From NCBI GenBank assembly GCA_030670545.1, contig DAOVBM010000002.1, positions 4,258 to 68,257 on the forward strand: a DNA stretch of 64,000 bases, written 5' to 3'. Both the position numbers and the translations under genes were made by a program. The notes under the pieces were generated by a model that saw only the letters and a program-made list of their open reading frames with translations, was not told the origin of the DNA and did no database searches. This document shows, one piece after another, positions 8,236 through 60,479 of this stretch; position 1 is the first letter of the stretch; each line of letters opens with the position of its first letter. This DNA is from Candidatus Woesearchaeota archaeon. GTDB lineage: Archaea > Nanobdellota > Nanobdellia > Woesearchaeales > JAGLGH01.

Positions 8236-8254
8236 ATGAACGTGGAAACATACA

Positions 8255-9848: not shown

Positions 9849-9866
9849 TAATTTATACAATTAACC

Positions 9867-10381: not shown

Positions 10382-10384
10382 AGA

Positions 10385-10648: not shown

Positions 10649-10650
10649 AA

Positions 10651-11480: not shown

Positions 11481-11498
11481 TCATAAAAAGGAATCAAA

Positions 11499-11927: not shown

Positions 11928-11930
11928 AAA

Positions 11931-12623: not shown

Positions 12624-12640
12624 TGAATCAATGAGACAAA

Positions 12641-13150: not shown

Positions 13151-13152
13151 AA

Positions 13153-13383: not shown

Positions 13384-13415
13384 AAGAAAAAAATAAAACA
13401 TTCATGAGGTAAAAA

Positions 13416-13808: not shown

Positions 13809-13829
13809 TGTTATTATAATGTTATTAAA

Positions 13830-15432: not shown

Positions 15433-15441
15433 TGATTAAAA

Positions 15442-16897: not shown

Positions 16898-16898
16898 A

Positions 16899-17744: not shown

Positions 17745-17770
17745 ATAGTATAAGTTCAATAAAAAGAAAG

Positions 17771-24529: not shown

Positions 24530-24888
24530 ATCCCTTGCCTCTTTATGATTATTGATAATCAATATATCATTAGTTATCAACAAGCCATTGCCCATTAGGT
24601 TAAACTTTACTCTATAATAAATAAACACCTATAAAAACGTTTCGAAAACTTCTCATCAAATAAACATTTGGGATCTATAATTATAGGATAAAACTAGCAA
24701 ATATATTATTTATAACCCAATAGCTCATCCACTGGACATCCCTCCTCCCATCTTGTCGATAGTACTAAGAAAAAGAGAATGAAATCCTAGTAAATTGAAG
24801 CTCATTAAAGGGATATAATCTTAAGTCCATTCAAAGGATTGATTAGATATAATTTGAATCAAAGAATATTTTGACGAATCATAAAAAT

Positions 24889-39514: not shown

Positions 39515-42478
39515 ATGAAAAAAACAACAACAACAATCATAATAACTTTATTAACAGTTTTAATAACAAGCTCTGTCTCAGCATTAAACATAACGCTTTA
39601 CTACAATGAAACAACTGGGCTGTATGATGAGAGCGGGGATTATACATCATCTGCAGACAATTACGGTGGCTCGCCATTATACGCCTGCGTGATTGAATGG
39701 GAAGAAGATACTCCTTCAGGTACTGATATCACAATGCAGCTGAGGTCTGGCAATGCAGAGCCTTTGTCAGGAGACTTTATAGGGCCTGACGGAACCTCCG
39801 ACACTTATTATCAAACAAGCCCTTCTATCGCAAACTCAACGCATAATTCTAATACCTATATTCAATGGAAATCATTTTTAACTACAACAGATACATCAAT
39901 AACTCCAACATTATACAATGCAACTTATTGGTGTTATTCAACCTGTACTTCAGATTTAAATTGTAATGCAGGCTTATACTGCATCAGTAATGAATGCGTT
40001 CCGAACACTGCTCCTGAGATGGTAGGCATAACAGACAGCCCAGATCCAATCAAAGGCGGGACAAGCATCACAATCACTGCAAATGGAGTCACAGACCTCC
40101 AGGATGATACGCTTTATCTTTACTGTGGAACAACAACTACCCCTGATTCAGGAAATACTATCTGCGCAGGCGGAACAACATCAGATACAGGAGATCCTTA
40201 CAATCTTGACTGTACATTTCCTGTACCAACAGATGACACAACACATACAGTCTATTGCAGGCTTTATGATGGAACTGTCTACAGCGCTGTAAACTCAACA
40301 ACATATACAACAGACAGCACTCCTCCTGCAGCTGTTACAATCACAAGTTTAGATGGTGATATAGCATCACCTTACTGGGATACTTCAGACAATTCACAAA
40401 CAATAATCTACGCAGACAGGCCGGATTCAGGTATGTTATGCAGATGGTCAACAACTGATATACCATATTCCAGTATAAGCAGTTCTAATGATTGTACAAT
40501 GGGAGAGGATAGTACACAATGCAACCTAGGCAGCCTTTCCCAATCAGCCTCTTACACATACCACATATCTTGTTCTGATGCTGTTGGCAATGATCAATCA
40601 ACAGCCCAAAATACAGGTATCACATTCGGAGTTGACTGGACAGAACCCAGCACTTATGTAAGCGGCACAGGAAGCTATTATGTTCCAGGACATGAAGTCA
40701 TATTCCATGAAGAAGATAATATAGGCACACCTGCTACAATCCTTACATGGCATTGTACTTCTGACCTCGGCTGCACTCCTGTAATTGAAATTGACAATCT
40801 TGAGGATGTTACATTCACAGAAAGAGGAACTAATTATTTAAGATGGTACAGTAAAGATGCAGCAGGCAATGACCAGCCAGCACAGGGTGTAACTGTAGAA
40901 ATTAACAGCCTGCCTGTGATAACTGATGATGATATGTTCTCAGGTGTCGAGGGATCAGGTGATTTCACTGGACAAAAAGGCCAGAAAGCGCATTTCTACT
41001 GCAAAGGCACAGATTCAAACGGAGCAGTTGACGGCAATGCAGGATATTCTGCAAAGATATGGTTAAGAGTCTCCGGTTCTGGAACATGGGACAGGGTAAA
41101 TGGCGTTTCAATGACATGGGATTCAGCAAATAACAGATTTTTCTATAATTTAGTTTCACCTATCACTGACAGCTATAATACAAAATGGGATATGATGTGC
41201 GAGATTACTGATGATTTAAATGAAGGGGCAAATCATACAAAGAATAATGTATTTACAGTTGTAAATACCCCTCCAAATGTTGATGAGATATTTGTAGGCT
41301 ATCCAAATGCGCAAAAATTCGATAATCAGCGCTGGAAATGCGCAGTAGTTGATTATGATGACCAGCATTCAGGCAATGCTATGGAAGTAATATTCTCGCT
41401 GGCAGAAAGAGGTTATCTTATTTCGGGTCCCCTGCTTCTTGATAATGTTACAATGACATGGGAAAGCGGGGCTAATTATTATTATGATAGGATTGTGCTG
41501 GAAGATGGAGATACACATTATGATGCACAATGCCTGGCTTACGATGGAGTAGAGTATTCATCAATGCGCACAGAACTTGATGTTCCAGAACATATTGTAA
41601 GCAATGACTGGGACGGCGACGGAGTATCAGATTCAGCAGATAGCCTTGAAGGTACAGGAGCAGACCTTGACACAGCACTGAGTGTTACAATAAAAGTTGA
41701 CGGCATAGTCAACAATAGTCCGAGAGGCTCGCATACAGTTACATTCGAAGATAATGGTGTAGAATTTGTTAGGTTTACAAATGACTTTGATACAAACGAA
41801 CTTTTAACACCATGGATTATAGTTGATAGGATAGCAACAGGCGAAAAAGGAAGTGTGCTTGTTAGTGGACTTGAAGGGATATCAAAGACATTGCGTATTC
41901 CTAAGCTTCTTGGCTCTGGTTTAATATGTCTAAAGAATTCATCAGTAACAAGCATTAGTGAGATAAGCTCTGGGTGTGATGAACCAGACGAGATATTATT
42001 TGCCAACTGCGGTATTGGAGGGGAAACGATTGGAGGAATTACATGTATTGATAAGACCACATATTATGAAGTAAGTGGAGTGACCCATTCTGCAGTAATT
42101 GAATTTGGCAATGCAAGATTAGAGGTATGGTCAGAGGGTACATATTGGCAGCTTGATGATATATTCTTCTATGTCAACTACACAAATTCAAGTTCAGGTG
42201 CAGCAATAACAGGAGCTGATTGCAATATCTGGTTTGATGACACTGGATGGAATGATATGGCCTTTGATGGAACATTGCATAACTATAACCGGACTTTCAA
42301 CAGCGCAGGAGACAGGACATACAATGTAAGCTGTACACATGCAACTTATACAAATCTAACAGTTCAGGACAGCTTTACAATATCTCAAAGCGCTATCCCT
42401 GAGTTTTCAGTATTAACTCTTGGATTAGGGTTGATAGCTGTGTTGATTGGATTGGTAATAATCAGGAAAAGAAGATAG
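39515..42478 (+). CDS. Large PEF-CTERM cell-surface protein
   Basis: Signal peptide, many N-x-S/T sequons. C-terminal module YNRTFNSAGDRTYNVSCTHATYTNLTV...IPEFSVLTLGLGLIAVLIGLVIIRKRR. Confidence 0.75.
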   Translation: MKKTTTTIIITLLTVLITSSVSALNITLYYNETTGLYDESGDYTSSADNYGGSPLYACVIEWEEDTPSGTDITMQLRSGNAEPLSGDFIGPDGTSDTYYQTSPSIANSTHNSNTYIQWKSFLTTTDTSITPTLYNATYWCYSTCTSDLNCNAGLYCISNECVPNTAPEMVGITDSPDPIKGGTSITITANGVTDLQDDTLYLYCGTTTTPDSGNTICAGGTTSDTGDPYNLDCTFPVPTDDTTHTVYCRLYDGTVYSAVNSTTYTTDSTPPAAVTITSLDGDIASPYWDTSDNSQTIIYADRPDSGMLCRWSTTDIPYSSISSSNDCTMGEDSTQCNLGSLSQSASYTYHISCSDAVGNDQSTAQNTGITFGVDWTEPSTYVSGTGSYYVPGHEVIFHEEDNIGTPATILTWHCTSDLGCTPVIEIDNLEDVTFTERGTNYLRWYSKDAAGNDQPAQGVTVEINSLPVITDDDMFSGVEGSGDFTGQKGQKAHFYCKGTDSNGAVDGNAGYSAKIWLRVSGSGTWDRVNGVSMTWDSANNRFFYNLVSPITDSYNTKWDMMCEITDDLNEGANHTKNNVFTVVNTPPNVDEIFVGYPNAQKFDNQRWKCAVVDYDDQHSGNAMEVIFSLAERGYLISGPLLLDNVTMTWESGANYYYDRIVLEDGDTHYDAQCLAYDGVEYSSMRTELDVPEHIVSNDWDGDGVSDSADSLEGTGADLDTALSVTIKVDGIVNNSPRGSHTVTFEDNGVEFVRFTNDFDTNELLTPWIIVDRIATGEKGSVLVSGLEGISKTLRIPKLLGSGLICLKNSSVTSISEISSGCDEPDEILFANCGIGGETIGGITCIDKTTYYEVSGVTHSAVIEFGNARLEVWSEGTYWQLDDIFFYVNYTNSSSGAAITGADCNIWFDDTGWNDMAFDGTLHNYNRTFNSAGDRTYNVSCTHATYTNLTVQDSFTISQSAIPEFSVLTLGLGLIAVLIGLVIIRKRR

Positions 42479-46272: not shown

Positions 46273-48096
46273 CTAACACTTGATCTTATGATGCACTATA
46301 AAGCATTCTTTTGAATCTACCACCTTTACTTCTGACTCAATCTCTTTTTTTATCTTTTCGCAACTTGTCTTTGGATTGAGCTTCTTGTCATATCCCACAG
46401 AAAGATATTCTATTTTCTCGAATGATTCATGCTCCCTCAGGTTTATCTTTGCCTTGCTGAGAGGTATCATCCTGCTCTGCGTTATGTCGGTTATTATATC
46501 TCCTTTGATCAAATCAAAAAGCAGCTTGAACTCACAGCCTTTATCTTTGCAGGTCAGCATGCATGCAGGGATAAGATATGTAGTTATGCTCTTTACAGGC
46601 TTTTCTGACATAAGCACAAGGTCTTTTATCGACGTCTTTGGCTTTATCACTGGCAGTATATCTTTTGATGCAAACTTCTTTGTCTCCTTCAGCACATCAA
46701 TAGTCTCTTCCTCTTCTCCAAGGATATCAATCGCTTCTCCACCATGCTTTGATCTCTTGGGCCTTATATTCACAAGAAGGGGCATGTCAACAATCCCTGT
46801 GATCATTGCTGTCCCTATAGGCAGGCTCTTGATATTGCTTTCAGACTCTGAAGATATCCCCTCAACTGATGATATGATTGCCTTAAGGTCATTTGGATTT
46901 GTGACTTTCAGGATTATCTGTGTATTGCACTGCGAGAGCACAGATTTCTCGACTCTTGCAGGCCTCTGCGTAATTATGCACATCCCAAGCCCAAACTTGC
47001 GGCCCTCGCTTGCTATTGTCCTGATGATGCTTGCGGATTTTGCATCCCCAAATCCCCTTTCAGGGCAGAAGTTGTGCGCTTCTTCAATGACTGCAAAAAA
47101 AGGCGGTATCCTGCCCCTTTTCCTTTCTTCAAAAAGGTCTTTCATCAGCTTGTAGACAATTATCTGCTGCATCTCAGGCTCTATCCCTCTCATGTTGATT
47201 ATAGAGCAGTTGCCTGGCTGTATCAGTTCATTATATTGCGTATAATCTGAAGAGAACAGCTCAAGCTTGTCAAGATAGTCTATGACATTGATAAGGTTCC
47301 ACTTTGCATTATTCTCCTCGGTTTCAAGCTCAAGCAGCAGCCCTGTGATTGTCACAGGATTAAGGTTCTTGAGCGCAGAATACAGCACAGCCATCTGGTT
47401 TGATGTCAGCTTGCCAGGCATGAGGTGGATAAGCTCCTGGCTTGTCATCTGATCATTTAGCTTCAGCGGAATTGATTCATTGTTTATGTTTATATCTCCA
47501 TATTCCCTAATCTGTCCTGCATAGCTCTTGGCTGTTATGCCAAACTTTTCCATCCTCTCTATGTCTTTCTTATTGTCATTCTTCTGTTTTAATGCAGAGT
47601 ACTCTCCATGGGGGTCTATTATAAGCAGAGGAACTTTCTTCTCGAGAATCTCTTCTATCAGCACTGAGGCCATGTATGATTTTCCTGCTCCAGTTTTTGC
47701 GATTATTGATACATGCTTTGTGAGAAGCTTTTTCAGGTCAAGCCTTATCATTATGTCCTTAGAGTCAAGTTTTCCTATATAAGCTCCATTCCTGTTTGTT
47801 TCAAGAGCAAGCACACCTTTTATTAGTTTGTCTTCAGCTTTCAGTACTTCTGAACCAGAAGCAAAAGGAATTCTCATCTGCCTTACTTTCTTATCTTTGT
47901 CAACATAGCCTATCACATTGCAGAGAGCTATAGTTTGGTTCTTATCAGAAATAAGCTCTATTATCTGACCAAGCACAAACTCATAATTCTTATGATACAC
48001 CTGCACATAATCAAACTTTCTTGCATCATGGTCTACTGCAAACCTGAAACTGGTTGTTGTAATCCTTCCTGTAATCTTGCCAAAAATCATAGACAT
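46273..48096 (-). CDS. HerA/FtsK-superfamily ATPase (DUF87-type) with extra Cys-containing C-terminal domain
   Basis: N-terminal barrel, Walker A IIAKTGAGKSY, DPHGEY, Walker B LLIIDEAH-like block (FFAVIEEAHNF). No NurA/Mre11/Rad50 neighbours. Confidence 0.65.
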   Translation of the reverse strand: MSMIFGKITGRITTTSFRFAVDHDARKFDYVQVYHKNYEFVLGQIIELISDKNQTIALCNVIGYVDKDKKVRQMRIPFASGSEVLKAEDKLIKGVLALETNRNGAYIGKLDSKDIMIRLDLKKLLTKHVSIIAKTGAGKSYMASVLIEEILEKKVPLLIIDPHGEYSALKQKNDNKKDIERMEKFGITAKSYAGQIREYGDININNESIPLKLNDQMTSQELIHLMPGKLTSNQMAVLYSALKNLNPVTITGLLLELETEENNAKWNLINVIDYLDKLELFSSDYTQYNELIQPGNCSIINMRGIEPEMQQIIVYKLMKDLFEERKRGRIPPFFAVIEEAHNFCPERGFGDAKSASIIRTIASEGRKFGLGMCIITQRPARVEKSVLSQCNTQIILKVTNPNDLKAIISSVEGISSESESNIKSLPIGTAMITGIVDMPLLVNIRPKRSKHGGEAIDILGEEEETIDVLKETKKFASKDILPVIKPKTSIKDLVLMSEKPVKSITTYLIPACMLTCKDKGCEFKLLFDLIKGDIITDITQSRMIPLSKAKINLREHESFEKIEYLSVGYDKKLNPKTSCEKIKKEIESEVKVVDSKECFIVHHKIKC

Positions 48097-48550: not shown

Positions 48551-49420
48551 CTATTGCTGATTTACATATTCAAAATAGCCGTACTTAAGCTTATTCTGCA
48601 TCTTTTCAAAATCTTTATCAGACATCAGGCCGCCTTCTCCTGAAAATCCTCCCTGATGTTCTTTAAAATCTTTTGCCAGGATTACCATATCACCTGCCAT
48701 TTGTGTCAGGCCTGTTATATACTTAACCTGCCTTGGATCTTTTGCGCCAGGATAGGCAAGAATTTCCTTAAATGTATCCACAATTATTTTATATCTGGAT
48801 AAGTGTGTATTTGCCATGCTGTTTATGATTTTTGTGTCGCTGGGCCCAAATTTCCCGCCTTTACCTGTTAATTTGTATCCTGTTTCTGCAAGAACCTCAA
48901 TCCCTTCTTTGAGATGGCCTGCTGTTTTTGTGAGCTTTAAGAGAGAGTGAATTTGATAATCATCTTTTGCTATTACATCTATCCCTGGATAAGAAGGAAA
49001 ATTCTTTGTTATTTCTTCAACTATACATTTGTACCTTGTTTCGTTAATATTCTCCATATTTTTTATCAAATCGCATAAATTATGGAATTCATTCCCAGTA
49101 ATATCTCTAAATTTCCCTTTTTTTCTATATCCTGTCCCTAATATATTTATTGCCCCTGTTATATAATCCTTCTCAGTGTTGAGATAATCCAGCCATAATT
49201 TGTGTTCTGGTTTGTTTAAAGATACAGATAATTCCAGATTGTCTTCAAGATTTTTTATAATCTTGTTTATTCTGGATTCTTTGTAATTATGTTCCAGCTG
49301 GGTTATTGTGGGTTTAGGCTGCCTCTCCATCAATATGTTATTTCCTGCAGCAGAGTCCTCACTATATAGAAGAATGGTTCCAACTACGCAAATCATTGCG
49401 ATTCCTTGTTTTATTTTCAT
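48551..49420 (-). CDS. Secreted hypothetical protein (signal peptide) bracketed by family-3 direct repeats
   Basis: N-terminal hydrophobic segment. No recognisable domain. Confidence 0.45.
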   Translation of the reverse strand: MKIKQGIAMICVVGTILLYSEDSAAGNNILMERQPKPTITQLEHNYKESRINKIIKNLEDNLELSVSLNKPEHKLWLDYLNTEKDYITGAINILGTGYRKKGKFRDITGNEFHNLCDLIKNMENINETRYKCIVEEITKNFPSYPGIDVIAKDDYQIHSLLKLTKTAGHLKEGIEVLAETGYKLTGKGGKFGPSDTKIINSMANTHLSRYKIIVDTFKEILAYPGAKDPRQVKYITGLTQMAGDMVILAKDFKEHQGGFSGEGGLMSDKDFEKMQNKLKYGYFEYVNQQ

Positions 49421-49851: not shown

Positions 49852-49973
49852 TTGAAAATCATAGTTTATATTTTTTTTGGTTTTTAATTTTCATTTATGG
49901 AAACTTACTTCCATTAATGTAATCTTCTTTCTTAAAATAGAAATATTTAAATACTTTCTATCCTGATGACTGT

Positions 49974-50234
49974 ATGATGAATCCTGTTGGAGAGCTGATA
50001 GACCCTAAGATTGCCAGAGTCATAGCTCTGCTTATAAAGAACAGGAAAGACTATTTCCATCTGCAAAAGATATCACAGGAGGCAGGTGTCCCGATTTCTA
50101 CTACTTTCAGGATAATAAATAAGTTGGTAAATCTTGGCTTTATCGAGAAGACAAATGTCGGTAATTTCAAGATATACAAGATAGCAGGAAACAGGAAAAC
50201 TGCGCAACTTTGCAGGGTATTATCAATCAAATGA
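49974..50234 (+). CDS. Small winged-helix transcriptional regulator
   Basis: HLQKISQEAGVPISTTFRIINKLVNLGFIEK is a HTH plus wing. Its stop overlaps the start of the giant gene in an ATGA arrangement. Confidence 0.5.
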   Translation: MMNPVGELIDPKIARVIALLIKNRKDYFHLQKISQEAGVPISTTFRIINKLVNLGFIEKTNVGNFKIYKIAGNRKTAQLCRVLSIK

Positions 50235-53200
50235 GAATAGGCAAAGAGACAAATGACAATCTTGCTCTCAGGAGAGCAGGAAGAGAAAAGAGAAAGCTGA
50301 TCAAGCTGCTAAGGGGGACTCAGATGAACAAATCTGCTCTTATCAATGCAGTAAAAGGCCTTAATGAACAGTATGAAAAAGGAATGTTCAGCTATGATCT
50401 GTATAAGATAAGGTATGATGCTCTTCTTGGAACAAGGACAGTAAAGCAGTGGTCCAGGCATTATGATTATTATGCAAAATGCTGCATGGATGGCATTGAC
50501 AAGCTGGACACGCAGATTGAGCTATTAAACTCTGAAAGACAAGAGCTTCCTGTCCCTCCTGCTATAGCATACCTTGTGTTTGCAGCATTGATAGGATTAA
50601 TGGGATTTTTCCTCATTAAGCCTGCATTCATAGGGTTTGTGACATTTGAAAAAACAGTTAGCGCAAGTGATGATCTGAATCTCACATTTAACGAGTCTGG
50701 AACTTATATCTGGTCTCTATCAAGAGCAGGACAGCTGAACAGCATAATGGTGTCTGGAAGAGTCACATCCGGCGGCTCTGCAATAGTATCAATAATAAAC
50801 GACAATAAAAGCTATGTTATATTCAATTCCTCTTTGCTTGAATTAGGAGGTTTTGGAGCTATAACCGGCTATGCCACATTCGGAGAATATGCAGCAGAAG
50901 TGGATAATATAGCAGTCACAGAGCCGGTTGTCATTACTGAAGGTGATGTTCCTGGAGATGTAACTCTTGACATCTCAATGCAGTACAAACCAGGAACAGT
51001 ATTTGATCCTGAAGATGATGGCAGGGAATCAACAGGAGGATTTATTGATTTCACAGTTGAGAACACAATAACAGATCAGGATGAGTCATTTCTTTGCGCT
51101 ATCTGGGATATAAACAATATCTACAGGGAATGCTATGGGAGTGGATTGTGCTGTGACTTTGTAGAAGTTGAGAGGTATGATTCAGACTGGAAAAAACCTT
51201 TCCTTGTATTTTATGGGCTTGAAGGAGTAAATCTTGATAATAATATAACTTCCCAGGTGTGGTATGTTGATTACAATCTTTCCCTTGAGAATCCATATTC
51301 ATACATATACTCAAGCGATACACTGCAGCTGCCTGCAATGTTCTATTACAGGGGGTATCTGTTTGAGGATTCATGCATAGACACCTGTCTTATTGCAGGA
51401 TTGGGATTCAACAAGACAAATTATACACTGAACATAACAATAGATAATGCTGAGATTGATATATCGACACTGGATTACATCCTTAGTGTTGAGGAATATG
51501 CTGCGAAAGAGACATTGGTTCAGCATAAGGCAGAGATAAACAAGCCTGTCAGATGGACAAAAACAAAGAAATATGATGTTAAACAAGATAGTATTCCATT
51601 TAATATATCTGAGAATGCAGAAAATATTACGATATATAAAAAGGAGAAACAAGACCTGAAAAAAGTTAAAGAAGAAAACATCAAAATAAAAAAAGAAGAA
51701 GATAAAAAAATAGAGATACTGATTAGTGAAGAAGCAAACGAAATAGAGATTGAATACTATACTCCTGCTCCTGAAACAATTGAGATGGACATATCTCCAT
51801 CCTCCAAAAAAATTATTGTAACATCTGAAGAGCATTATACAGATATCTTTACTTATACATCTCTGCCTTCAGAAGCAAAACCAGAGTTTGTGCATCTCTA
51901 CTGGCTTGTCAATGATACAAGGATAGAAGTACCAGATGTTGTGAAGAATGACACAAATGGTAATGGATTAATAGACTGGATTGAATGGATAACTCCTCAC
52001 CTGAGCAACCAGACTTATGTGATTGAGATAGATATAAACAGATCAAGCCCTACATTCTATGAAAGAAGCCCTGATACATGCGACGCTACAGAGTATGCAC
52101 TTGTTGATGATAATCAATATACAACCTGTAAAAAAGGCCAATATGACTGGTGGAGCGGCTATGATTTTTCAGGCATACCTGATAATGCTAATATTACAGG
52201 GATAAAGATTGAACTTAAAGATGCATATACCAAGAAAGGCAAAGAGTCTTACGCAGGCATTAGGTTATCCTGGGATGACCATTCAAACTGGACTCTTGCT
52301 AAAATCTCATCTGTAATAAATGAAAGCAGCTTGCCTGGAGGCACATATGTTTTCGGCAGCTCCACTGACACCTGGGGCCGTAACTGGACAGCTGATGAGC
52401 TAAAAAACCATTTCTGGGTAGAATGGAATATAACTGGACTTAATCCTGTATCTGCAGACTGGCTGCCTGTATCTGTATATTACACTCTTGAGATAGACCT
52501 GCTCTCCCCAGTTACTGATCTTGGACGCCAATCTTCTGACAATACCTGGATATACTGGAATTGGACAAACCCCTCTGAAGAAAATTTTACAGAGAATATC
52601 ATATATATTGATGGAGTCTGGAAACAGAACACTTCTAATAATTACTATAATGCAACTAATCTTGTCCCTAAGCAAAACTATACAATCACTGTCCATACCA
52701 AAGACATATACAGCTATGTCAATACTAACGATGTGAACAACACTGCTGCTGCTACAAATGCAACACCTCCTATAGTCACAAACATAACAAGAGTCAGCCC
52801 TTCAGCTTTCATTGAAAGCCCTTCAAGGTGCAGTGATAGTTTATACGTTTATAGTGATGATGAACAATATGCATACTGCGACAAAAATGAATATGAATGG
52901 TGGAATGGGTATGATTTTTCAAGCATACCTGGTGGCGCCATTATTACTGGAATACAGGTTGAACTTAAAGATACATATTGCCCCTCAGAGAAAATATCTT
53001 ATGCAAACATAAGCCTGTCGTGGGACAACAGAAGTTCCTGGACAAGCGAAAAAATCTCATTCCAGATAATTGATACAATCCCTCCTGGAAGAACATATAT
53101 TTTCGGTGGTTCAAATGACACCTGGAATCATAATTGGACATTAGATGAAATAAAAAACAATTTTTGGGTTGAATGGGAAACAACTGGAGAAAATGCAGGC

Positions 53201-54805
53201 GGAGTATATATGGACTGGCTGCCGGTAACAATATTTTATACCTATGTCCCTCAACTAGGTTCTGTGGCAAACCTCAATAATCCAGATGCTGGAAAGACAT
53301 GGCTATACTGGAACTGGACAAATCCCCGTCTTGGGGACTTCAGTGAGGCTGTCATCTATCTGGATGGTGTCAATGTGATTAATACCTCTAATAATTATTA
53401 TAATGCGACTAATCTTATGCCCAATACTGCTTACACTATTATTGTGCATACCAAAGATGTCGATGGGAATTTGAATACATGGGATGTAAGCAGATCTGCA
53501 ATTACCAGAAAGATTGTTTATTTAGAAGCAAACGCCAGCAAAATAAGTCCTACCACCTTTGTGCAAAGCCTAAGTAAATGTGATGCATCCAGTTATGTAT
53601 ATATCTATGATGACCTTTATACTTATTGCAATGAGGGTAGATATGACTGGTGGGGGGGATACAATTTTTCAATCATCCCTGATAATGCAATAATCCATGG
53701 CATAGAAGTCTCACTATTTGATACATATACTGTCAAAAATCGCGTATCTTATGCAAACATAAGCCTATCCTGGGATAATATGAGCTCCTGGACCAGCGCA
53801 AAGACCTCCCTCCAGATTAATGAGATTGAATTGCCTGGGGGAGATTACATATTAGGAGGAGAAAATGATACCTGGGGACGCAGCTGGACTGCTGACGAGA
53901 TAAAGAATTATTTTTGGGTTGAGTGGACGACTGTTGGAACAGATGCAGGGAGGGTATATGCCGACTGGCTGCCTGTTACTATATACTATTCTGTACCTAC
54001 ACAGCTGCCTTTAGTTAATGAATTCATTCATCCTGACACCACAAACTTTTCTGCTGCTGCAGATTTAGAAAAGATTGAAAGAATGACATTAGCAGTAGAT
54101 AATACAAAAGTGGCCTGGATAAACGCAGTGAATGCTACTGGTGAAGATTATGATGTTGAGATAAATATGGCTGAAGGGTTTGTATCAGTCAATGTGCATG
54201 CATTGCATCATACAATCAATTCAACTGCAAATGTCACTTTAGAGAATATCAATTGCAGTGAGTTTAGATTATATTATGCAGAAGGATTTTACCCGTCAAG
54301 GTTTGAGCTTGTGTCTGTGGGGAATATCATAGCTGATGAATCAAATCTGGAAGGGAATTGTACAGATGCTTCAATATGCACTGATTTATATTGTTCTGGA
54401 AATACTCTTAACTTCATTGCTCAGCACTTTGATGGGTTTGGTATTGGAGCGATATTGTGGGTAAATGCAACATCTCCTGTTGGATTTGGAGATAATGTTA
54501 CTATAGATACAGAAATCCTTGAAGGCAATTATACAATTGATACTGTTCTGGCTGGCATAAAACCTCCTGGAGCTGATGAAGTGAATTATACAATGCATAA
54601 TATTTCCTCAAGCACATTTGTTCTGGATAATTATACTAATTATCTCCCTGGCACTTATAATTATACTGTGTATGTGAATAATACTGATGGTAATATAACG
54701 ACCGATAGCGGATTCTTTGACATGTGGATTAATATGACTCTCGGAATTATGACTATTAAAGATATATATAGGGTTGATGAGATTGTGAACCTGACAAGTG
54801 TATGA
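50231..54805 (+). CDS. Giant (~1520 aa) membrane-anchored, heavily N-glycosylation-sequon-rich surface protein with 3 tandem ~250-aa repeats (novel domain + FN3-like)
   Basis: N-terminal cytoplasmic ~100 aa, one TM helix (AIAYLVFAALIGLMGFFLIKPAF). Repeat units begin CDATEYALVDD, CSDSLYVYSDD and CDASSYVYIYDD at 52079, 52829 and 53579 (750-bp period). FN3-like WIYWNWTNP...NYYNATNL...YTITVHTKD. C-terminal CTDLYCSGNTLNFIAQHF motif shared with the PEF-CTERM proteins, but no PEF anchor. Confidence 0.7.
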   Translation: MRIGKETNDNLALRRAGREKRKLIKLLRGTQMNKSALINAVKGLNEQYEKGMFSYDLYKIRYDALLGTRTVKQWSRHYDYYAKCCMDGIDKLDTQIELLNSERQELPVPPAIAYLVFAALIGLMGFFLIKPAFIGFVTFEKTVSASDDLNLTFNESGTYIWSLSRAGQLNSIMVSGRVTSGGSAIVSIINDNKSYVIFNSSLLELGGFGAITGYATFGEYAAEVDNIAVTEPVVITEGDVPGDVTLDISMQYKPGTVFDPEDDGRESTGGFIDFTVENTITDQDESFLCAIWDINNIYRECYGSGLCCDFVEVERYDSDWKKPFLVFYGLEGVNLDNNITSQVWYVDYNLSLENPYSYIYSSDTLQLPAMFYYRGYLFEDSCIDTCLIAGLGFNKTNYTLNITIDNAEIDISTLDYILSVEEYAAKETLVQHKAEINKPVRWTKTKKYDVKQDSIPFNISENAENITIYKKEKQDLKKVKEENIKIKKEEDKKIEILISEEANEIEIEYYTPAPETIEMDISPSSKKIIVTSEEHYTDIFTYTSLPSEAKPEFVHLYWLVNDTRIEVPDVVKNDTNGNGLIDWIEWITPHLSNQTYVIEIDINRSSPTFYERSPDTCDATEYALVDDNQYTTCKKGQYDWWSGYDFSGIPDNANITGIKIELKDAYTKKGKESYAGIRLSWDDHSNWTLAKISSVINESSLPGGTYVFGSSTDTWGRNWTADELKNHFWVEWNITGLNPVSADWLPVSVYYTLEIDLLSPVTDLGRQSSDNTWIYWNWTNPSEENFTENIIYIDGVWKQNTSNNYYNATNLVPKQNYTITVHTKDIYSYVNTNDVNNTAAATNATPPIVTNITRVSPSAFIESPSRCSDSLYVYSDDEQYAYCDKNEYEWWNGYDFSSIPGGAIITGIQVELKDTYCPSEKISYANISLSWDNRSSWTSEKISFQIIDTIPPGRTYIFGGSNDTWNHNWTLDEIKNNFWVEWETTGENAGGVYMDWLPVTIFYTYVPQLGSVANLNNPDAGKTWLYWNWTNPRLGDFSEAVIYLDGVNVINTSNNYYNATNLMPNTAYTIIVHTKDVDGNLNTWDVSRSAITRKIVYLEANASKISPTTFVQSLSKCDASSYVYIYDDLYTYCNEGRYDWWGGYNFSIIPDNAIIHGIEVSLFDTYTVKNRVSYANISLSWDNMSSWTSAKTSLQINEIELPGGDYILGGENDTWGRSWTADEIKNYFWVEWTTVGTDAGRVYADWLPVTIYYSVPTQLPLVNEFIHPDTTNFSAAADLEKIERMTLAVDNTKVAWINAVNATGEDYDVEINMAEGFVSVNVHALHHTINSTANVTLENINCSEFRLYYAEGFYPSRFELVSVGNIIADESNLEGNCTDASICTDLYCSGNTLNFIAQHFDGFGIGAILWVNATSPVGFGDNVTIDTEILEGNYTIDTVLAGIKPPGADEVNYTMHNISSSTFVLDNYTNYLPGTYNYTVYVNNTDGNITTDSGFFDMWINMTLGIMTIKDIYRVDEIVNLTSV

Positions 54806-54908: not shown

Positions 54909-55268
54909 TTATTTCTTCCGATAACCAAACTTTTTATTATATCTTTCATGATCAATAATATCCAGAACAAAACATATTATTTCTACTTCATCTCCCTTAA
55001 TAGTATACAGCATTCTCCAATATTGAGAAAGTTCAACTCTCCATAAATTTTGAACATTATACTTTTGAGGTATACATTTTTTAGGGATATTGTCTCCATA
55101 AAATGGATTGGCCTTTACAAATTCAAATTTCTGTTTTATAGAACGCAATAATTGTATCTCTTTTGTGCTTTCCATTCCTTGTTTTCGCTGGTTGCCAACT
55201 ATTTCATTTAATCTCTTGTATTCACTATCTGCTTCATCTAAGAGAATTACTCTTACTGACTGATTCAT
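54909..55268 (-). CDS. RelE/ParE-superfamily toxin-like protein
   Basis: C-terminal NLWRVELSQYWRMLYTIKGDEVEIICFVLDIIDHERY resembles the RelE/ParE core. 4-nt overlap with the upstream small ORF. Confidence 0.45.
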   Translation of the reverse strand: MNQSVRVILLDEADSEYKRLNEIVGNQRKQGMESTKEIQLLRSIKQKFEFVKANPFYGDNIPKKCIPQKYNVQNLWRVELSQYWRMLYTIKGDEVEIICFVLDIIDHERYNKKFGYRKK

Positions 55269-55561
55269 ACTTCTGTTCCCCTTTTGATTAATTCATTTAA
55301 TTCTTTCCTTTCAGTAAAAATCCATAGGACTCCTTTTGTTCCAATCATTATTTTCCCGCTAATCTGCAGATAGTCTAATATTTGTATTAAAGTCTGATGC
55401 ATCACTTTTCGGGGCAATTTTCTTTTTAAATCTGCCAATGTTACTAATTCCCTTGCTTCTTTTAGTGTTTCTTCTACCATTAATACAGTATTCAGATTAG
55501 GAGAATGTTGTAATTTTTGTTTTTCCAATATTTGTGTTGTGTGCGCCATTTTGTATATCAA
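55265..55561 (-). CDS. Putative cognate antitoxin / small DNA-binding protein
   Basis: 98-aa ORF translationally coupled (ATGA overlap) to the RelE/ParE-like gene. Confidence 0.35.
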   Translation of the reverse strand: MIYKMAHTTQILEKQKLQHSPNLNTVLMVEETLKEARELVTLADLKRKLPRKVMHQTLIQILDYLQISGKIMIGTKGVLWIFTERKELNELIKRGTEV

Positions 55562-55804: not shown

Positions 55805-56359
55805 ATGAAAAAAACTGTCAAAAAGGATGCCGAATCTTATAGTTTTGTTAATGATAAGGCTGTCACATCATTTGAGGCAAAAGAGAGCAGTTTTCTGAAT
55901 AAGATAAGGGAGTTTAAGAAAAGGCATAAGATTTCAGTCGAAGAGTTCATGCTTCTTGTCGAACTTCCTTCCATGAGTATTCCTGTTTCTATTTTTGATT
56001 CAGAAATGCCTCCTCTTGAGGCAGTCACTCTTTATCTAAATTCATGTTATAGTGTCAATGATATCTCACAGTTATTGAAAAGAAGCCAGAAAACAATCTG
56101 GACCACACTAAAAAATGCAAAGTCAAGAGGATTTGAGCTGAATATTTCAGGTACTGAAAGAGTTCCTCTACAGATTCTTGCTGACAGGCAATTCAGCATC
56201 CTTGAGAGCACAGCAAAATATCTCAGGGAAGAGAAAGGCCTCAGGCTGATAGACATTGCAAACCTTCTCTCAAAAGACAGGCGCTTAGTCTGGACTGTCT
56301 ATGACAGGGCGAAAAAGAAGATGCAATCAAAAGAAAAGAAACAAGATGCGCAAGAATAA
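55805..56359 (+). CDS. Regulatory protein with two sigma-70 region-4/LuxR-like HTH modules
   Basis: EAVTLYLNSCYSVNDISQLLKRSQKTIWTTLKNAKSRG and QFSILESTAKYLREEKGLRLIDIANLLSKDRRLVWTVYDRAKKK are both helix-turn-helix patterns of the r4 type. Confidence 0.45.
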   Translation: MKKTVKKDAESYSFVNDKAVTSFEAKESSFLNKIREFKKRHKISVEEFMLLVELPSMSIPVSIFDSEMPPLEAVTLYLNSCYSVNDISQLLKRSQKTIWTTLKNAKSRGFELNISGTERVPLQILADRQFSILESTAKYLREEKGLRLIDIANLLSKDRRLVWTVYDRAKKKMQSKEKKQDAQE

Positions 56360-57527
56360 GACATTAAGAGGAATATGGAAATATAACAGGAATTTGATAG
56401 CTTTAGCTGTAATCCTGTTTGCCATGCTGTCATTTGCAGCTGCATCTGTCTCTGCTGTAAATGAAAGCTGGGTCAGGAACTTAGGCCCAACCAATGCATC
56501 AATATTCCTATTGATTAAAGTTGATTACTGGAACAGCACAAGCTTAGTATGGGAGGCTGAGTTTACAGCCCTTGATGACATAACTGGCAGATACACGCAG
56601 GGAAATGACAGCTATATTGCGCTTGACCAGTTCTTCAATGGAAAGTACAATTCATCAGAGAACTTTACGCATGGAGATGGAACTTACAGGATTTATGCTG
56701 CAGTGACTGATCCTGAAAACAATGTGCTGCAGGATGTGGAAGGCAGCAGTATTGAAGCAAGCTATAATTTCACAATCAAGATAACTAATGTTCCACCGCC
56801 AAAAGTCACGCTTATAGCTCCTGCAAATGATTCATTTGGCTATGATAAGAGGTCGACTTTCAACTGGTCTTCTGTCATTGATGATAATGGAGACAATGTT
56901 ACATACAGGCTGTATCTGATCAGGACAGGATGCTATGGATTGTCAGACTGCATCAATCCAGAAGTTGATGTAGACAATATAACTGGAACAAGCTACACTA
57001 TTGAGGAAGATTTGGACCTTGACAGCCCATACAACTGGACTGTAACAGCGCATGACGGAACAGAATATGGTGAAGAATCAGATATCTGGAATTATACAGT
57101 AGCATCTCTTATTGATATCAGTCTTGTTGTCAGTGATATAAGTGTAGCAGGAATGGAACCCGGAGACAATGAAAGTACAGAGGATGATTCTCCTCAGCCA
57201 TTCATAGTGCAAAATAAAGGCAATGTGCATGTCAACCTTACAGTCCATGCATCTGTACAGCTATGGGATCTTGCCCCTCTTGGAACTAAGTACTTCATGT
57301 TCAAAGCAGGAGAATCGACTATAAAACCAGCATCATTCAATATGACTCTTTCCGCATCTGACTGGCTGAACATGACAGGTTTAGCACAGTTTGCTGTGGC
57401 AAATCTCCATTATAATGATACTAAAGATTATGCTGAGATAGAGCTGGCTGTAGAAGTGCCGCATAACGAGCCGCCTGGCGCAAAATCGACAGATATAATA
57501 ATAGAAGCTGTTGGTACAAAAACATAA
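56346..57527 (+). CDS. Signal-anchored surface protein with Ig/FN3-like segments (start at MRKNKTLRG overlapping upstream stop)
   Basis: TM at LIALAVILFAMLSFAAASVSA. Many NxS/T sequons. TLIAPANDSFGYDKRSTFNWSS...VTYRLYL is an FN3-like strand pattern. Confidence 0.5.
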   Translation: MRKNKTLRGIWKYNRNLIALAVILFAMLSFAAASVSAVNESWVRNLGPTNASIFLLIKVDYWNSTSLVWEAEFTALDDITGRYTQGNDSYIALDQFFNGKYNSSENFTHGDGTYRIYAAVTDPENNVLQDVEGSSIEASYNFTIKITNVPPPKVTLIAPANDSFGYDKRSTFNWSSVIDDNGDNVTYRLYLIRTGCYGLSDCINPEVDVDNITGTSYTIEEDLDLDSPYNWTVTAHDGTEYGEESDIWNYTVASLIDISLVVSDISVAGMEPGDNESTEDDSPQPFIVQNKGNVHVNLTVHASVQLWDLAPLGTKYFMFKAGESTIKPASFNMTLSASDWLNMTGLAQFAVANLHYNDTKDYAEIELAVEVPHNEPPGAKSTDIIIEAVGTKT

Positions 57528-57541
57528 ATATGTAGATAAAA

Positions 57542-59155
57542 ATGGTATCCCTAATTAAAACCGGAGTTGGAATCTTGGTCATAGCAGCTGCGTTATTGTT
57601 GATAACTATTGAGCCCGTCTCAGCATTTGGAATATCCCCTGCTGGATATAATGAGTTTTTTAAGTCTGATACTGCTTATATATATTCTTTCTGGATTGTG
57701 AATTCAGATAAGCAAAATTTTACTGTTAGTATTTCTGCAGATGGGGAATTAAGCAAGTATATCACATTGCTGAATCATTCAATATCCTTAACTGATGCTG
57801 ATGATTTCAAGAAAGCGTTTTTTAAGATTAGCTATCCTGAGTCATTAGGCGAGCCTGGACAGCACAGCGCATATCTAATCTTCACGCAAGATGATAAAAC
57901 CCCTGAAGCAGAAAGGGATTCAAGACAGGATAATGTCAGAGTTATTCCTGTTGTAAAAGCAATGTTCAACGCTTTTGTGCCTTATCCTGGCCTGTACCTT
58001 GATTCCAATATGAGCATAGAATCATTAAATCCTAGGCAGCCAGTCTCTTTAATATTCCCTTTGTCAAACAGGGGTTTGATTGATATTGATTCCATATATG
58101 CAGATATAAGAGTATATGATAATGGCGGTGCGCAAATTATTGATGCGAGGACTGATGAGATTTCTCTGCAATCAAAGAAACAGGTTGACTTACGAAAAAA
58201 ATTTGGTGATGAACTTAAGCATGGTTCATACAAGTGCAGCGCAATCCTGTATTATGATGGAAATTCTGTAAATTTCAACAGGGATTTTGATTATGGCTCA
58301 TGGATGGTAAGTATACAGGATATCAGGGTTGATGATTTTAAGATTGGTGGGTTTGCAGATTTCAATATAACACTTTCCAATAACTGGAATCAGGATGCAG
58401 TGGGCACTGTTGCAGATATGATTATTACAAGCAAGACAGGATATCATTATGAGAGCGTTACAAGCGTTGAGACTATTCCTGCGCATGGTTCTGCGCAGTT
58501 TAGCGCTTATTGGGACACATCTGATGCAATAGCAGAAGATTATTTTATTACACTAAGGATATATTATGGCCAAAATGTACAGCAATATTCAGAAACATTT
58601 ACTGTAGAGGAAAACCGGATAATCACAAGATATTATACTCCTCCAGAGAAAGTATATGAAACGTGGTATAAGAAACATAAGGAGGATATCAGCTACTGGG
58701 CATTCCCTGCAATACTGCTTATCCTTGCAATGCTTGTATTCTTTATATTAATACAGTTCCTGCCGCTGTTAGATGCTATTATAGCAAGGATGAAAAAGAT
58801 AATATTAATTCCTGTAAGATGTGTGTCCAGAGTTATTTCTTATATTGCAGGATTGTCTTTCTTTGACAACTATAAGAGGAAGAGAAGGATAAGGGAATTG
58901 CAAAAAAGAAAAAATCTGTGCATAAAGTCAATAAGGTCAATAAAAGACGATCTGGTTATTATGAAAAAAGCAGTAGAAGGCCTTTATCATGAACTTGAGA
59001 AAGGCATAATCAACAAAAGCGAGTTCAATAACAGGCTAAACACAATACTTGAAGGAAAAACATTAGAATACTTGGAAGATTATTATGTATCGGTTATTGT
59101 TCAGTTAGAAGAAAAGATAAAGCAGATTAATAAGAAAATATGGGAAGAGGGGTAA
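57542..59155 (+). CDS. Membrane protein: signal peptide, beta-rich ectodomain with VPYPG motif, C-terminal TM and coiled-coil cytoplasmic tail
   Basis: Paralogous to the partial ORF at 62997 (AFVPYPGLYL vs IFVPYPGKYL; ILYYDGNSVNF vs ILINYDGIDLEV). TM YWAFPAILLILAMLVFFILI. Confidence 0.5.
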   Translation: MVSLIKTGVGILVIAAALLLITIEPVSAFGISPAGYNEFFKSDTAYIYSFWIVNSDKQNFTVSISADGELSKYITLLNHSISLTDADDFKKAFFKISYPESLGEPGQHSAYLIFTQDDKTPEAERDSRQDNVRVIPVVKAMFNAFVPYPGLYLDSNMSIESLNPRQPVSLIFPLSNRGLIDIDSIYADIRVYDNGGAQIIDARTDEISLQSKKQVDLRKKFGDELKHGSYKCSAILYYDGNSVNFNRDFDYGSWMVSIQDIRVDDFKIGGFADFNITLSNNWNQDAVGTVADMIITSKTGYHYESVTSVETIPAHGSAQFSAYWDTSDAIAEDYFITLRIYYGQNVQQYSETFTVEENRIITRYYTPPEKVYETWYKKHKEDISYWAFPAILLILAMLVFFILIQFLPLLDAIIARMKKIILIPVRCVSRVISYIAGLSFFDNYKRKRRIRELQKRKNLCIKSIRSIKDDLVIMKKAVEGLYHELEKGIINKSEFNNRLNTILEGKTLEYLEDYYVSVIVQLEEKIKQINKKIWEEG

Positions 59156-59219: not shown

Positions 59220-60479
59220 GTGTTTAGGATGGTTATAATGGTGACTAAATATGATGTATTCATGGAATTGTACGAAAAAGGAGGTCCACGAAAGATTGTG
59301 GATATTGTGCAGGGACTTAAGCAAAAGAAGTCAGAATATGATAAGATCAGGAAGATTTTGGAGACTCTTGTAGGAATTAAATTAATTGTCAAGAATGAGT
59401 ATGGCTATGAAAGGAGCATGAACCAGAAGAATCAGCATTTATTTGAGATGCTAAAGTACTGTATAAAAAATGATGTGAATTACAATGAATTGTTTGATGA
59501 GACCGTTGCCAAATATCTAAGCAAAGCATTCCTGAAAAAATCTTTTGGAGTTAAAGATATTGGGCTTCATGCAAGAACATTCTCAAAAATATCATCTGTT
59601 CTGGAAAATAATGGATTTCTGGTTGTGCTTTCAAGAAAACCATTCAAGGCTATTGTTCCCTATAATTCTTTTTTAGGTGATATTATTGTTTATTTTGGCC
59701 ATAGGCCAATGGTTTCCAGACTAAAAACAGATGAATATTTTGATGATATTAAGAAAGAGCTTGCAAAATTCAAAAGGCTAATAGAAGACAATAATAGAAA
59801 GTATCAGGAGATTCTTGAGACATTCCAGATAAAGTTTATTCATCATAGTCTGAGTATTGAAGGCAATCCAATTACTCTCAGGCAGACAATCAAGCTGCTT
59901 AAGGATAAAATTGTTCCAGAGAACCTGAGTGTTGAGTCTGTTCAGGAAGTCCAGAATTATCAGAAAGCTTTTCTGCAGATGATCCAGAATGTGAGGGACG
60001 AGCTTCCTCTCTCAAAAGACAGCATGTTGAACTATCATTTTATTGCGCTGCAGCACAAACCAGAATGGGCTGGCAAGATTAGAGATGACCATGTTACTAT
60101 ACGCGGGAATGTAGATTACAAAGTTGCTCATTATAAAGATGTAGATTCGCTGTTAGATAAACTTGTCAAGAGATACAATGACTTTCTTAATGTGAAAAAG
60201 CACGCATTAAAAGAACTTCTTGAATTTGCTTCATATATTCATAATGAGTTTCAGCACATTCATCCTTTCTTTGACGGGAACAGCAGGACAACCAGGCTTA
60301 TTGTCTTCCATTTCCTGCAAATAAATGAAATCCCTATTTTTGATATACCTCTGGGATTGCTTGAAGAATATGTGTTTTCCACAAAAGGAGCAAAGAAGCG
60401 TGACGACCAGAAGTTAGGTCAGATACTTCAGCAAATAATTCTCTATAATCTAAAGACAATTAATGAGAAACTCTCTTGA
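59220..60479 (+). CDS. Fic/DOC family protein (probable AMPylase) with N-terminal wHTH
   Basis: Fic motif HIHPFFDGNSRTTR matches HPFx[DE]GN[GS]R. Confidence 0.8.
   Translation: MFRMVIMVTKYDVFMELYEKGGPRKIVDIVQGLKQKKSEYDKIRKILETLVGIKLIVKNEYGYERSMNQKNQHLFEMLKYCIKNDVNYNELFDETVAKYLSKAFLKKSFGVKDIGLHARTFSKISSVLENNGFLVVLSRKPFKAIVPYNSFLGDIIVYFGHRPMVSRLKTDEYFDDIKKELAKFKRLIEDNNRKYQEILETFQIKFIHHSLSIEGNPITLRQTIKLLKDKIVPENLSVESVQEVQNYQKAFLQMIQNVRDELPLSKDSMLNYHFIALQHKPEWAGKIRDDHVTIRGNVDYKVAHYKDVDSLLDKLVKRYNDFLNVKKHALKELLEFASYIHNEFQHIHPFFDGNSRTTRLIVFHFLQINEIPIFDIPLGLLEEYVFSTKGAKKRDDQKLGQILQQIILYNLKTINEKLS

Follow-up and report, generated by a model that had tools for sequence, protein, structure and literature searches.

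Why does the gene for a giant surface protein begin inside the stop codon of a small DNA-binding gene, and what might the two products do together? The question is raised by a gene pair at 49974–54805 of a 64,000 nucleotide (nt) stretch of DNA, here called the window, which corresponds to positions 4,258–68,257 (forward strand) of contig DAOVBM010000002.1 in assembly GCA_030670545.1. The first gene (49974–50234, + strand) encodes an 86 amino acid (aa) winged helix-turn-helix (wHTH) protein matching Pfam HTH_IclR, and the second (50231–54805, +) a surface protein of 1,524 aa plus stop. The giant gene lies in a long open frame (50210–54805), for which the listing of open reading frames (ORFs) gives an ATG at 50231. 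Its start overlaps the wHTH stop within the sequence ATGA (ATG at 50231, TGA to 50234), confirming the overlap of the two genes reported in a preliminary description of this DNA. The repeat protein itself proves to be fairly ordinary; what deserves attention is its conserved coupling to DNA-binding proteins that are interchangeable.

The sequence derives from a Candidatus Woesearchaeota archaeon (GTDB: Nanobdellota; Nanobdellia; Woesearchaeales; JAGLGH01). The window is chromosomal, encoding SecY, SMC and HisRS, and the closest relatives of the giant protein are labelled Nanoarchaeota or Woesearchaeota; on these sequence grounds the source is a DPANN archaeon. The locus is not an assembly artefact, since an independent Logan assembly (L003) of 5.8 kb matches the window throughout without a difference, and an ortholog from another sample (locus L002, protein P0002) carries the same three repeat copies. 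A public protein collection also contains an identical giant protein (P0001).

Layout of the giant protein

Hydropathy analysis of the giant protein finds one hydrophobic segment, at aa ~105–139 (50543–50647, +), which is the sole stretch with a Kyte-Doolittle 19-residue mean above 1.6; no transmembrane segment was found by this measure at the C-terminus. The single N-terminal anchor of the preliminary description is borne out, and the protein is predicted to be a type-II (N-in, C-out) signal-anchor protein with ~1,385 aa outside the cell. It had also been described as packed with N-x-S/T sequons, and this too holds: of 58 sequons, one lies in the cytoplasmic tail and 57 in the ectodomain, compared with 19.8 ± 3.9 (maximum 34) in 2,000 composition-preserving shuffles. 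The sequon density is 3.8 per 100 aa, against 0.4–0.5 for the cytoplasmic HerA and SMC proteins of the window. We infer that the giant protein is glycosylated.

The predicted cytoplasmic tail (aa 1–104; 50231–50542, +) is helical or coiled-coil and basic (21 K+R vs 14 D+E). It carries the motif G.(I/F)S..(E/L)Y...L.G.(R/K)T..(Q/E)W..Y(D/N), which recurs in the tails of many relatives of the giant protein, at the C-terminus of a 537-aa protein encoded further downstream in the window (58850–59155, E ~1e-4), and on many small and large transmembrane proteins encoded downstream of genes for helix-turn-helix (HTH) proteins resembling sigma-70 region 4 (r4). The tail matches no Pfam family. A relationship to CdvA was considered and set aside: profile matches to PDB were weak (CdvA coiled coil and 'ribophorin 1 superfamily', E ~0.007–0.008) and judged compositional, and the match of one tail member to Pfam CdvA (E 0.01) was likewise taken as coiled-coil composition rather than homology. 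Directly after the transmembrane helix (~50630–50650) is a KP.(I/F)(T/I)G motif that is kept in many family members, and may be a processing or packing motif.

Between the anchor and the repeats is a membrane-proximal 'stalk' (50648–52042, +), consisting of domains B (aa 140–240), C (aa 241–436) and D (aa 437–604). Domain C is rich in Cys (6 residues), and domain D carries a DTNxNGLID loop and an LSNQT motif. In an AlphaFold2 (AF2) model of the stalk, aa ~426–600 are confidently all-beta (beta-sandwiches), while domain C is modelled with low confidence. Foldseek searches against PDB gave only generic beta-sandwich matches for the stalk (TM-score ≤0.21), and Pfam gave none.

The distal part of the protein contains three copies of a domain named here, from its predicted fold, the jelly-roll. 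Copy 1 (aa 605–756; 52043–52498, +), copy 2 (aa 855–1006; 52793–53248, +) and copy 3 (aa 1105–1257; 53543–54001, +) each contain a Cys pair (aa 617 and 633, 867 and 883, and 1117 and 1133) and are recognised by hmmsearch with i-Evalues of 2e-81, 7.5e-86 and 8.4e-86. Copies 1 and 2 are followed by spacers resembling fibronectin type III (FN3) domains (spacer 1, aa 757–854, 52499–52792, +; spacer 2, aa 1007–1104, 53249–53542, +). Copy 3 is followed by a different C-terminal domain, domain E (aa 1258–1524; 54002–54802, +), which contains 4 Cys, is homologous to the C-terminal regions of the related proteins P0003 and P0005, and occurs in relatives that have other heads. No family for the giant protein was found in Pfam or NCBIfam (DUF2846, at E 0.011, was below threshold), and none for the jelly-roll, stalk, tail or C-terminal domain in Pfam, NCBIfam or PHROGs.

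The preliminary description had proposed three tandem units of ~250 aa, each with its own FN3-like segment. Three copies are indeed present at a start-to-start spacing of 750 and 750 nt, but triplication is confined to the ~150-aa Cys-pair domain and does not extend to the whole 250-aa unit, since copy 3 lacks the FN3-like segment that comes after the first two copies. The two spacers are paralogous (84% identity over 44 nt) and score 12.8 bits (spacer 1, E 0.14) and 19.0 bits (spacer 2, E 0.0017) against Pfam fn3 (PF00041), both short of the gathering cut-off of 25, so that they are FN3-like at best. The three jelly-roll copies are 63–72% identical in DNA sequence (81–84% in the best short stretches) and 52–56% identical in protein sequence over ~150 aa, with 59 invariant columns that include the Cys pair and 9 Trp. 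Conserved blocks are WW.GY.FS.IP, LSWD..S.WT, DTW..(N/S)WT.DE(L/I)KN.FWVEW and DW(L/M)P(V/L). Tandem Repeats Finder reported nothing relevant at the repeats, because the copies are too diverged. The ortholog P0002 is 81% identical and has the same three copies, each 84–89% identical to its positional counterpart. The triplication therefore predates the split between the two lineages, and the view that these are old, diverged duplications stands.

Structure prediction of one repeat unit, which had been suggested as a check, gave a confident all-beta jelly-roll (AF2; predicted local distance difference test 85.4, predicted TM-score 0.83), with carbohydrate-binding modules (CBMs) and phage tail proteins as the closest folds. 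Foldseek matches in PDB were the GlfT2 N-terminal domain, the Eph ligand-binding domain, CBM6/22/36 and Cry domain III (TM-score 0.45–0.5), and those in BFVD were predicted phage tail, neck-appendage and host-specificity proteins (TM-score up to 0.65–0.71). The likeness to CBM6/22/36 is at the level of the fold only (TM-score 0.45–0.5, identity 6–11%, no sequence match), and a search of PDB sequences with the jelly-roll profile returned noise (E ≥0.17).

The domain is not a private invention of this lineage, as shown by a search of 1.84 billion representative proteins with a profile built from six copies (those of the window and its ortholog). Matches were found in 1,728 clusters at E ≤1e-3, 217 at ≤1e-10 and 8 at ≤1e-30, spanning profile positions ~15–152, i.e., the whole ~140-aa domain. 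Members come from bacteria of the candidate phyla radiation (CPR), Chloroflexi and archaea; the named ones belong to Nealsonbacteria (CPR) and Dehalococcoidales, and are annotated as 'hypothetical' or by another domain. They share the motifs IP.GATI.GIEV, LSWDGG.SWT, GG..D.WGR.W and (F/Y/V)(L/V)D.(L/I/V).V.V.Y (visible in P0015, P0016, P0019, P0047 and others), and have one copy of the domain or tandem copies, alongside signal peptides, LamG, LTD or CarboxypepD_reg domains, or C-terminal anchors. None of seven single- or two-domain members (0/7) matched a Pfam family. The repeat domain is, by its predicted structure, a common, uncharacterised and uncurated extracellular jelly-roll, for which the modelled fold makes a ligand- or glycan-binding role plausible.

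Resemblance to CBMs could also indicate an extracellular enzyme or scavenging protein, in which the jelly-rolls act as CBMs and direct a catalytic domain, in the stalk or at the C-terminus, to a polysaccharide, and the lack of an assigned function for the stalk and C-terminal domains would leave room for such an activity. Across the 1,524 aa, however, no catalytic family or motif was found, and the part of the stalk that is confidently modelled is a plain beta-sandwich, making an enzymatic role very improbable.

Constant chassis and exchangeable heads

A word-index homology search of public proteins found 14 homologs that share the stalk and/or the C-terminal domain of the giant protein. By BLAST mapping, the stalk is common to P0003–P0014 at 24–58% identity. 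Domain C aligns with P0003–P0011 (32–58% identity) and has the motif ..LC..W....CYGS..CC.F.. ... QV.YVDYNLS, while domain E is 56% identical to P0003 (aa 1572–1839) and 60% identical to P0005 (aa 2164–2412). The tail with its transmembrane segment (aa 1–139) and domains B, C, D and E are each shared with various relatives; the head (aa 605–1257) is common to the ortholog P0002 only. At the same position, other relatives have LamG repeats (P0003, P0009, P0010 and P0012) or a different repeat of ~370 aa (P0005).

The family is uncurated, and is defined here by homologs P0002–P0014 and loci L009–L087. A scan for domain D (tblastn and motif alignments) of one genome per GTDB species gave 102 relatives, and 79 loci were kept. 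They are recognised by the motif EIEY.TPAP ... HY.N(I/V)L.Y ... DTN.NGLID.I.W..P.LSNQT, found in the window protein at aa ~505–601. The family ORFs, the longest of which exceed 3,000 aa, likewise have an N-terminal transmembrane segment, and several genomes hold two or three loci. Nearly all of the genome bins bear the name of Woesearchaeota, Nanoarchaeota/Nanoarchaeia, Aenigmatarchaeota or Pacearchaeota. Some ten are filed under other names (a single Saccharibacteria bin, uncultured Methanosarcinales, 'uncultured archaeon'), which we take to be mislabelling. No stalk relatives were found in viral contigs, and there was no sign of a virus-borne family. The jelly-roll profile hidden Markov model (HMM) matched none of the other 79 family loci, which makes the head a lineage-specific cassette, built from a domain seen mostly outside the family. 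Judged by these alignments, the giant protein is a member of a large, DPANN-restricted family that combines a constant chassis with an exchangeable distal head.

Comparison with the ortholog gives a dN/dS ratio of 0.21 overall (0.10–0.33 per region), indicating that the gene is under purifying selection, consistent with its being functional. Synonymous divergence (dS) between the two genes (window 50231–54802 vs L002 414–4988) is uneven, being 0.95 over aa 1–604 (95% confidence interval 0.76–1.19) and 0.34 over aa 605–1524 (0.29–0.40), with bootstrap intervals that do not overlap. Nucleotide identity to L002 rises in the same direction, from 70.5% in the wHTH gene to 76.1% in the 5′ half of the giant gene, 89.2% in the 3′ half and 94.4% in a downstream toxin-antitoxin-like region. 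The drop in dS and the rising identity point to a recombinant history with a breakpoint near the junction of stalk and head, and suggest that the segment comprising the head and the toxin-antitoxin-like genes moved recently.

These features bear on whether the protein belongs to the surface layer (S-layer), as the preliminary description had entertained. In a structural envelope protein, forming or anchoring an S-layer, the repeats would simply give rigidity to a glycosylated coat. In favour are the large size of the protein, its membrane anchor, its many potential glycosylation sites and its all-beta character, together with the further large surface-type proteins encoded in the window. No S-layer family was matched in Pfam or NCBIfam, however, and the presence of two or three loci in several genomes, exchangeable lineage-specific heads and a recombinant 3′ part are features of a variable recognition protein. 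Multiple loci and exchangeable heads fit adhesins better than a lattice protein, and a private regulator, as proposed below, also argues against constitutive bulk expression. A structural role in the envelope is thus quite unlikely.

Coupling to small DNA-binding genes

The 86-aa protein scores 31.4 bits with Pfam HTH_IclR (PF09339; cut-off 22, E 1.6e-7) and 24.4 bits with TrmB, and also matches MarR-type wHTH models. Regulators of the IclR family are ~250 aa long and have a C-terminal effector-binding IclR domain. The 86-aa protein has no C-terminal effector domain, and scores 18 bits with the NCBIfam IclR equivalogs, whose cut-offs are 250–380. Membership of the IclR family was therefore rejected, and the protein, which at 86 aa consists of the HTH only, is described as a stand-alone winged helix.

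Orthologs of the wHTH occupy the same position in loci L001, L002, L009 and L010. In L001 an 85-aa IclR-type wHTH overlaps the giant start by 4 nt, and in L002 an 87-aa one ends 1 nt before the giant ATG. Elsewhere the partner is of another type: the giant start is overlapped by genes for proteins of 168 and 183 aa with two r4-like HTHs in L004 and L007, and for an 87-aa protein with a single r4-like HTH in L006. A small gene thus abuts or overlaps the giant start in all of the relatives first examined (L001, L002, L004, L006 and L007).

A census of this slot covered the 76 GTDB family loci with upstream DNA, counting same-strand ORFs of fewer than 210 aa as small. The slot is occupied in 39 of the 76, the small ORF ending −23 to +6 nt from the giant start, most commonly with a 4 nt overlap. 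The r4-type HTH is the most frequent occupant (21 loci; E-values of 1e-23 to 1e-53 against a purpose-built HMM, with one at 4e-4), followed by other wHTHs and ribbon-helix-helix (RHH)-like proteins (five loci each, the latter sub-threshold). LuxR/GerE-type HTHs and IclR-type wHTHs (the closest relatives of the window protein) are found at two loci each and an AbrB/MazE-like protein at one, and three ORFs are unclassified. A Pfam scan of 25 slot representatives gave Sigma70_r4_2, HTH_23, GerE, HTH_24, MarR, HTH_5 and MazE.

The association also holds in the opposite direction. From at least 448 relatives, 80 metagenome loci were picked by the r4-HTH motif alone, with no selection on the giant gene, and 63 of the 70 visible downstream ORFs have a transmembrane segment in their first 220 aa. 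Most of the downstream ORFs overlap the HTH stop by 4–17 nt, and 17 carry stalk domain D. They vary greatly in size: 29 are of 500 aa or more, many of them cut by contig ends, while some are of 190–360 aa and consist of tail, transmembrane segment and a short ectodomain. Similarly, the GTDB loci (876 kb) contain 27 r4-HTH ORFs, and 24 of these stand before a membrane-anchored ORF, which is sequon-rich in most cases. Coupling is the rule in this family. The filling of one slot by non-homologous DNA-binding folds suggests functional constraint, and not inheritance alone. Synteny of the wHTH and giant genes elsewhere was one of the checks proposed in the preliminary description, which had counted against itself a repeat unit matching a well-known domain together with a coupling that is not conserved; the coupling is conserved in relatives.

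The slot folds (HTH, RHH and AbrB) are like those of antitoxins, and a type II toxin-antitoxin module was considered; it was rejected, the downstream gene encoding a 1,524-aa membrane protein. An apparent fusion of HTH and giant protein in L070 (7221–12746) was also rejected. There, a double r4-HTH lies in frame at the end (aa 1716–1834) of a 1,841-codon frame that is followed by another membrane-anchored ORF, and the reading we prefer is that it regulates the module that follows; the modules are probably in tandem, with a stop that is missing or an assembly that is wrong. A different domain, small and basic, has the motif K..YYY....R...G.V....YLG (the 'YYY' domain); it is encoded by a separate upstream ORF in L018 (5556–5864) and L076 (2343–2474), and in L016 (5981–6955) it forms part of the giant protein, joined to the cytoplasmic N-terminus. 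Family searches with it gave only a faint similarity to SSV1 D-335 (E 0.065).

Tight stop/start overlap is what would be expected of partners that act one to one, and the pair might accordingly be a transmembrane signalling system, like those of extracytoplasmic function (ECF) sigma and anti-sigma factors or of ToxR. The giant protein would be a contact sensor whose tail holds the regulator at the membrane until ligand or host contact at the ectodomain, or its proteolysis, releases it to switch gene expression. The commonest partner is an r4-like HTH, and the r4-coupled proteins have an anti-sigma-like architecture, being constant in the ~90-aa tail and transmembrane segment while their ectodomains range ~30-fold, from ~80 to more than 2,000 aa. 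The tail that recurs on the 537-aa partner protein, and the fusion in L016 of a domain that is separate in L018 and L076, would also suit such a pair. Tail type, however, does not covary with the regulator, the same motif being found beside wHTH, r4, LuxR, RHH and AbrB proteins, and many coupled giants have tails of only 3–30 aa. In addition, Archaea use no sigma factors, and the fused 'YYY' domain is not identifiable as DNA-binding. Signalling of this general kind is possible but rather doubtful. Its specific form as an archaeal contact-sensing pair, in which the tail sequesters or activates the small regulator and a host-cell ligand at the head releases it, is unlikely.

Alignment of the upstream regions of five IclR-type loci (the window, L001, L002, L009 and L010), which are otherwise diverged, revealed a conserved promoter-proximal footprint (49888–49919, +) with the invariant block TTTCnATTTATGrAAAC..TTyC. 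In the window it contains an imperfect palindrome, TGGAAAC-TT-ACTTCC, at 49898–49912, which is perfect in L009 (GGAAAC-TT-GTTTCC) and L002 (TGAAAAC-TT-GTTTTCA). The palindrome is a candidate operator, to which the wHTH may bind. Allowing one mismatch, the pattern occurs at 2 sites in the window (including the operator), against 2.07 expected from shuffles, and because it does not recur in excess within the window no regulon is proposed. Further downstream, the sequences AGAAA (49939–49943, +) and TTTAAATA (49946–49953, +; TTTAaATA) are (nearly) invariant in all five regions. From general knowledge of archaeal promoters, we take these to be the B recognition element (BRE) and the TATA box. Their position, 20 nt before the wHTH ATG, implies a leaderless or near-leaderless mRNA, and with a leaderless start on the first gene, re-initiation at ATGA on the second would be sensible.

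The reading we favour, and consider probable, is that the two genes form a self-regulating operon that makes an adhesin-like, modular surface glycoprotein. In such an operon the wHTH and giant genes would be transcribed together from the putative BRE/TATA promoter, probably as a leaderless mRNA, and translation of the giant protein would be coupled to that of the wHTH through the ATGA overlap. The wHTH, as a dimer, most likely binds the palindrome upstream of the BRE/TATA and autoregulates the operon, so that a costly surface protein would have a regulator of its own. The product would be a type-II, single-pass, heavily N-glycosylated cell-surface protein, in which the stalk holds a multivalent ligand- or glycan-binding head away from the membrane. 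A function as an adhesin is plausible, given the modelled fold and the analogy with known adhesins. Gene structure, predicted topology, repeat anatomy, family membership, the conserved DNA-binding slot and the promoter footprint are shown by the analysis, while glycosylation, adhesion and its ligand, DNA binding at the palindrome and the direction of regulation are inferences.

Several observations weigh against this interpretation. The fold resemblance from which, together with analogy, the adhesin role is argued has modest TM-scores. No ligand-binding residues were identified in the jelly-roll, and its many conserved Trp could belong to the core. A plain adhesin would not need the conserved ~90-aa cytoplasmic tail. 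The window palindrome has mismatched arms (GGAAAC/GGAAGT) and lies upstream of the BRE/TATA rather than over it, a position that does not distinguish activation from repression. Finally, the remaining half or so of the 76 family loci have no recognisable small DNA-binding gene upstream, and the RHH-like assignments in the slot are below threshold.

Neighbouring genes and known systems

Directly downstream of the giant gene, on the opposite strand, is a toxin-antitoxin-like pair, encoding a ParE/YoeB-like protein of 119 aa (54909–55268, −; Pfam ParE_like E 6e-4 and YoeB E 1e-3, both sub-threshold) and a 98-aa partner (55265–55561, −) with a 4 nt overlap. It lies between the giant gene and a second module, is kept beside the ortholog in L002, and is context, outside the operon of the giant protein. 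The second module (55805–59155, +) consists of a double r4-like HTH protein of 184 aa (55805–56359, +; Sigma70_r4_2-type matches), a membrane-anchored, sequon-rich protein of 408 aa whose gene overlaps that of the HTH (start at 56301 or 56346, end at 57527, +), and the 537-aa partner protein (57542–59155, +), an ortholog of a 529-aa protein in L001. In L001 the operon order is wHTH, giant protein (2,157 aa) and 529-aa partner. Residues 159–406 of the 408-aa protein match the C-terminus of the L001 giant (P0003 aa 1908–2155; 62.5% identity, 1e-103), and the 537-aa protein is 32% identical (2e-95) to the product of the gene downstream of P0003. An ancestral operon appears, from these matches, to have been split in the window, and the giant and 537-aa membrane proteins may associate through their similar tails.

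On the other side of the pair, a HerA/DUF87-type ATPase of 607 aa (46273–48096, −) is encoded two genes before the wHTH and is 75% identical to its counterpart in L001. This synteny probably reflects phylogenetic inertia, as it is conserved only with the close relative L001 and not with distant loci. Between HerA and the wHTH promoter is a gene for a 289-aa protein with an N-terminal hydrophobic segment (48551–49420, −), which has no family match and is missing from this position in L001. The window also encodes two other large putative surface proteins, one of 1,166 aa (21128–24628, −), with Gly_rich_2 and a MopE-type metal-binding motif, and one of 987 aa (39515–42478, +), with 26 Cys and no Pfam family. 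A 419-aa Fic/DOC-domain protein (59220–60479, +) is encoded directly downstream of the second module. The stretch from ~6000 to 18000 shows a very strong purine skew (AT and GC) on the + strand, with many short + strand ORFs, and ends at SecY (17771–19135); it is probably a ribosomal-protein operon.

DPANN archaea depend on physical attachment to their hosts, and to our knowledge the attachment molecules of uncultivated Woesearchaeota and Nanoarchaeota are not known. A constant chassis with heads swapped by recombination is the pattern expected of host-recognition molecules. The locus also exposes two uncurated building blocks: the jelly-roll, with its ~1,700 clusters, and the rule that couples unrelated small DNA-binding folds to membrane-anchored surface proteins. 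If the coupling is regulatory, it offers testable operators and candidate switches for the choice of surface protein. Episymbiotic DPANN archaea are, as far as we know, largely without two-component systems; should the pair after all prove to be a signalling pair, it would represent a new kind of archaeal transmembrane signalling, with 'one head, one regulator' sensors for host recognition. Literature searches, incomplete in their coverage, returned no description of the chassis family, of the jelly-roll family or head, or of the coupling to a regulator.

Giant, LamG-rich DPANN surface proteins are a known kind. Giant multidomain examples include the LamG-containing proteins of ARMAN/Micrarchaeota and Nanohaloarchaeota and the SPEARE proteins of Nanohaloarchaeum antarcticus, and are thought to mediate attachment of ultra-small archaea to the host. 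The window protein resembles them in its very large, extracellular, multidomain build, and its relatives carry LamG; SPEARE proteins differ in having protease or nuclease domains, of which it has none. With CBM6/22/36 and phage tail proteins, the repeat domain has in common the fold class and an aromatic-rich, extracellular and tandem character, but it has its own motifs (WW.GY.FS.IP, LSWD..S.WT, DTWG..WT, FWVEW and DWLPV) and an N-terminal Cys pair, and no sequence relationship to them.

The gene arrangement recalls ECF sigma/anti-sigma operons, where a small DNA-binding gene overlaps that of a single-pass membrane protein with an N-terminal cytoplasmic domain and a variable extracytoplasmic part, and many of the slot partners in the family share r4-like HTHs with these systems. 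The differences are the archaeal host, the window partner being a wHTH rather than an r4 protein, and ectodomains that can exceed 3,000 aa. Sigma70_r2 does not appear in the family matches listed for the scanned upstream proteins; the tails matched no anti-sigma families, and are absent in many family members.

Bacterial giant repeat adhesins (RTX adhesins, Bap and SiiE-type proteins) combine a proximal anchor, an extender and distal ligand-binding modules that are shuffled. The window protein shares with them both the design of anchor, extender and distal module and the shuffling of the distal module. It differs from them in having an N-terminal signal-anchor and no type I secretion system signal, in its few and old repeats, where theirs are numerous and nearly identical, and in being coupled to a DNA-binding gene.

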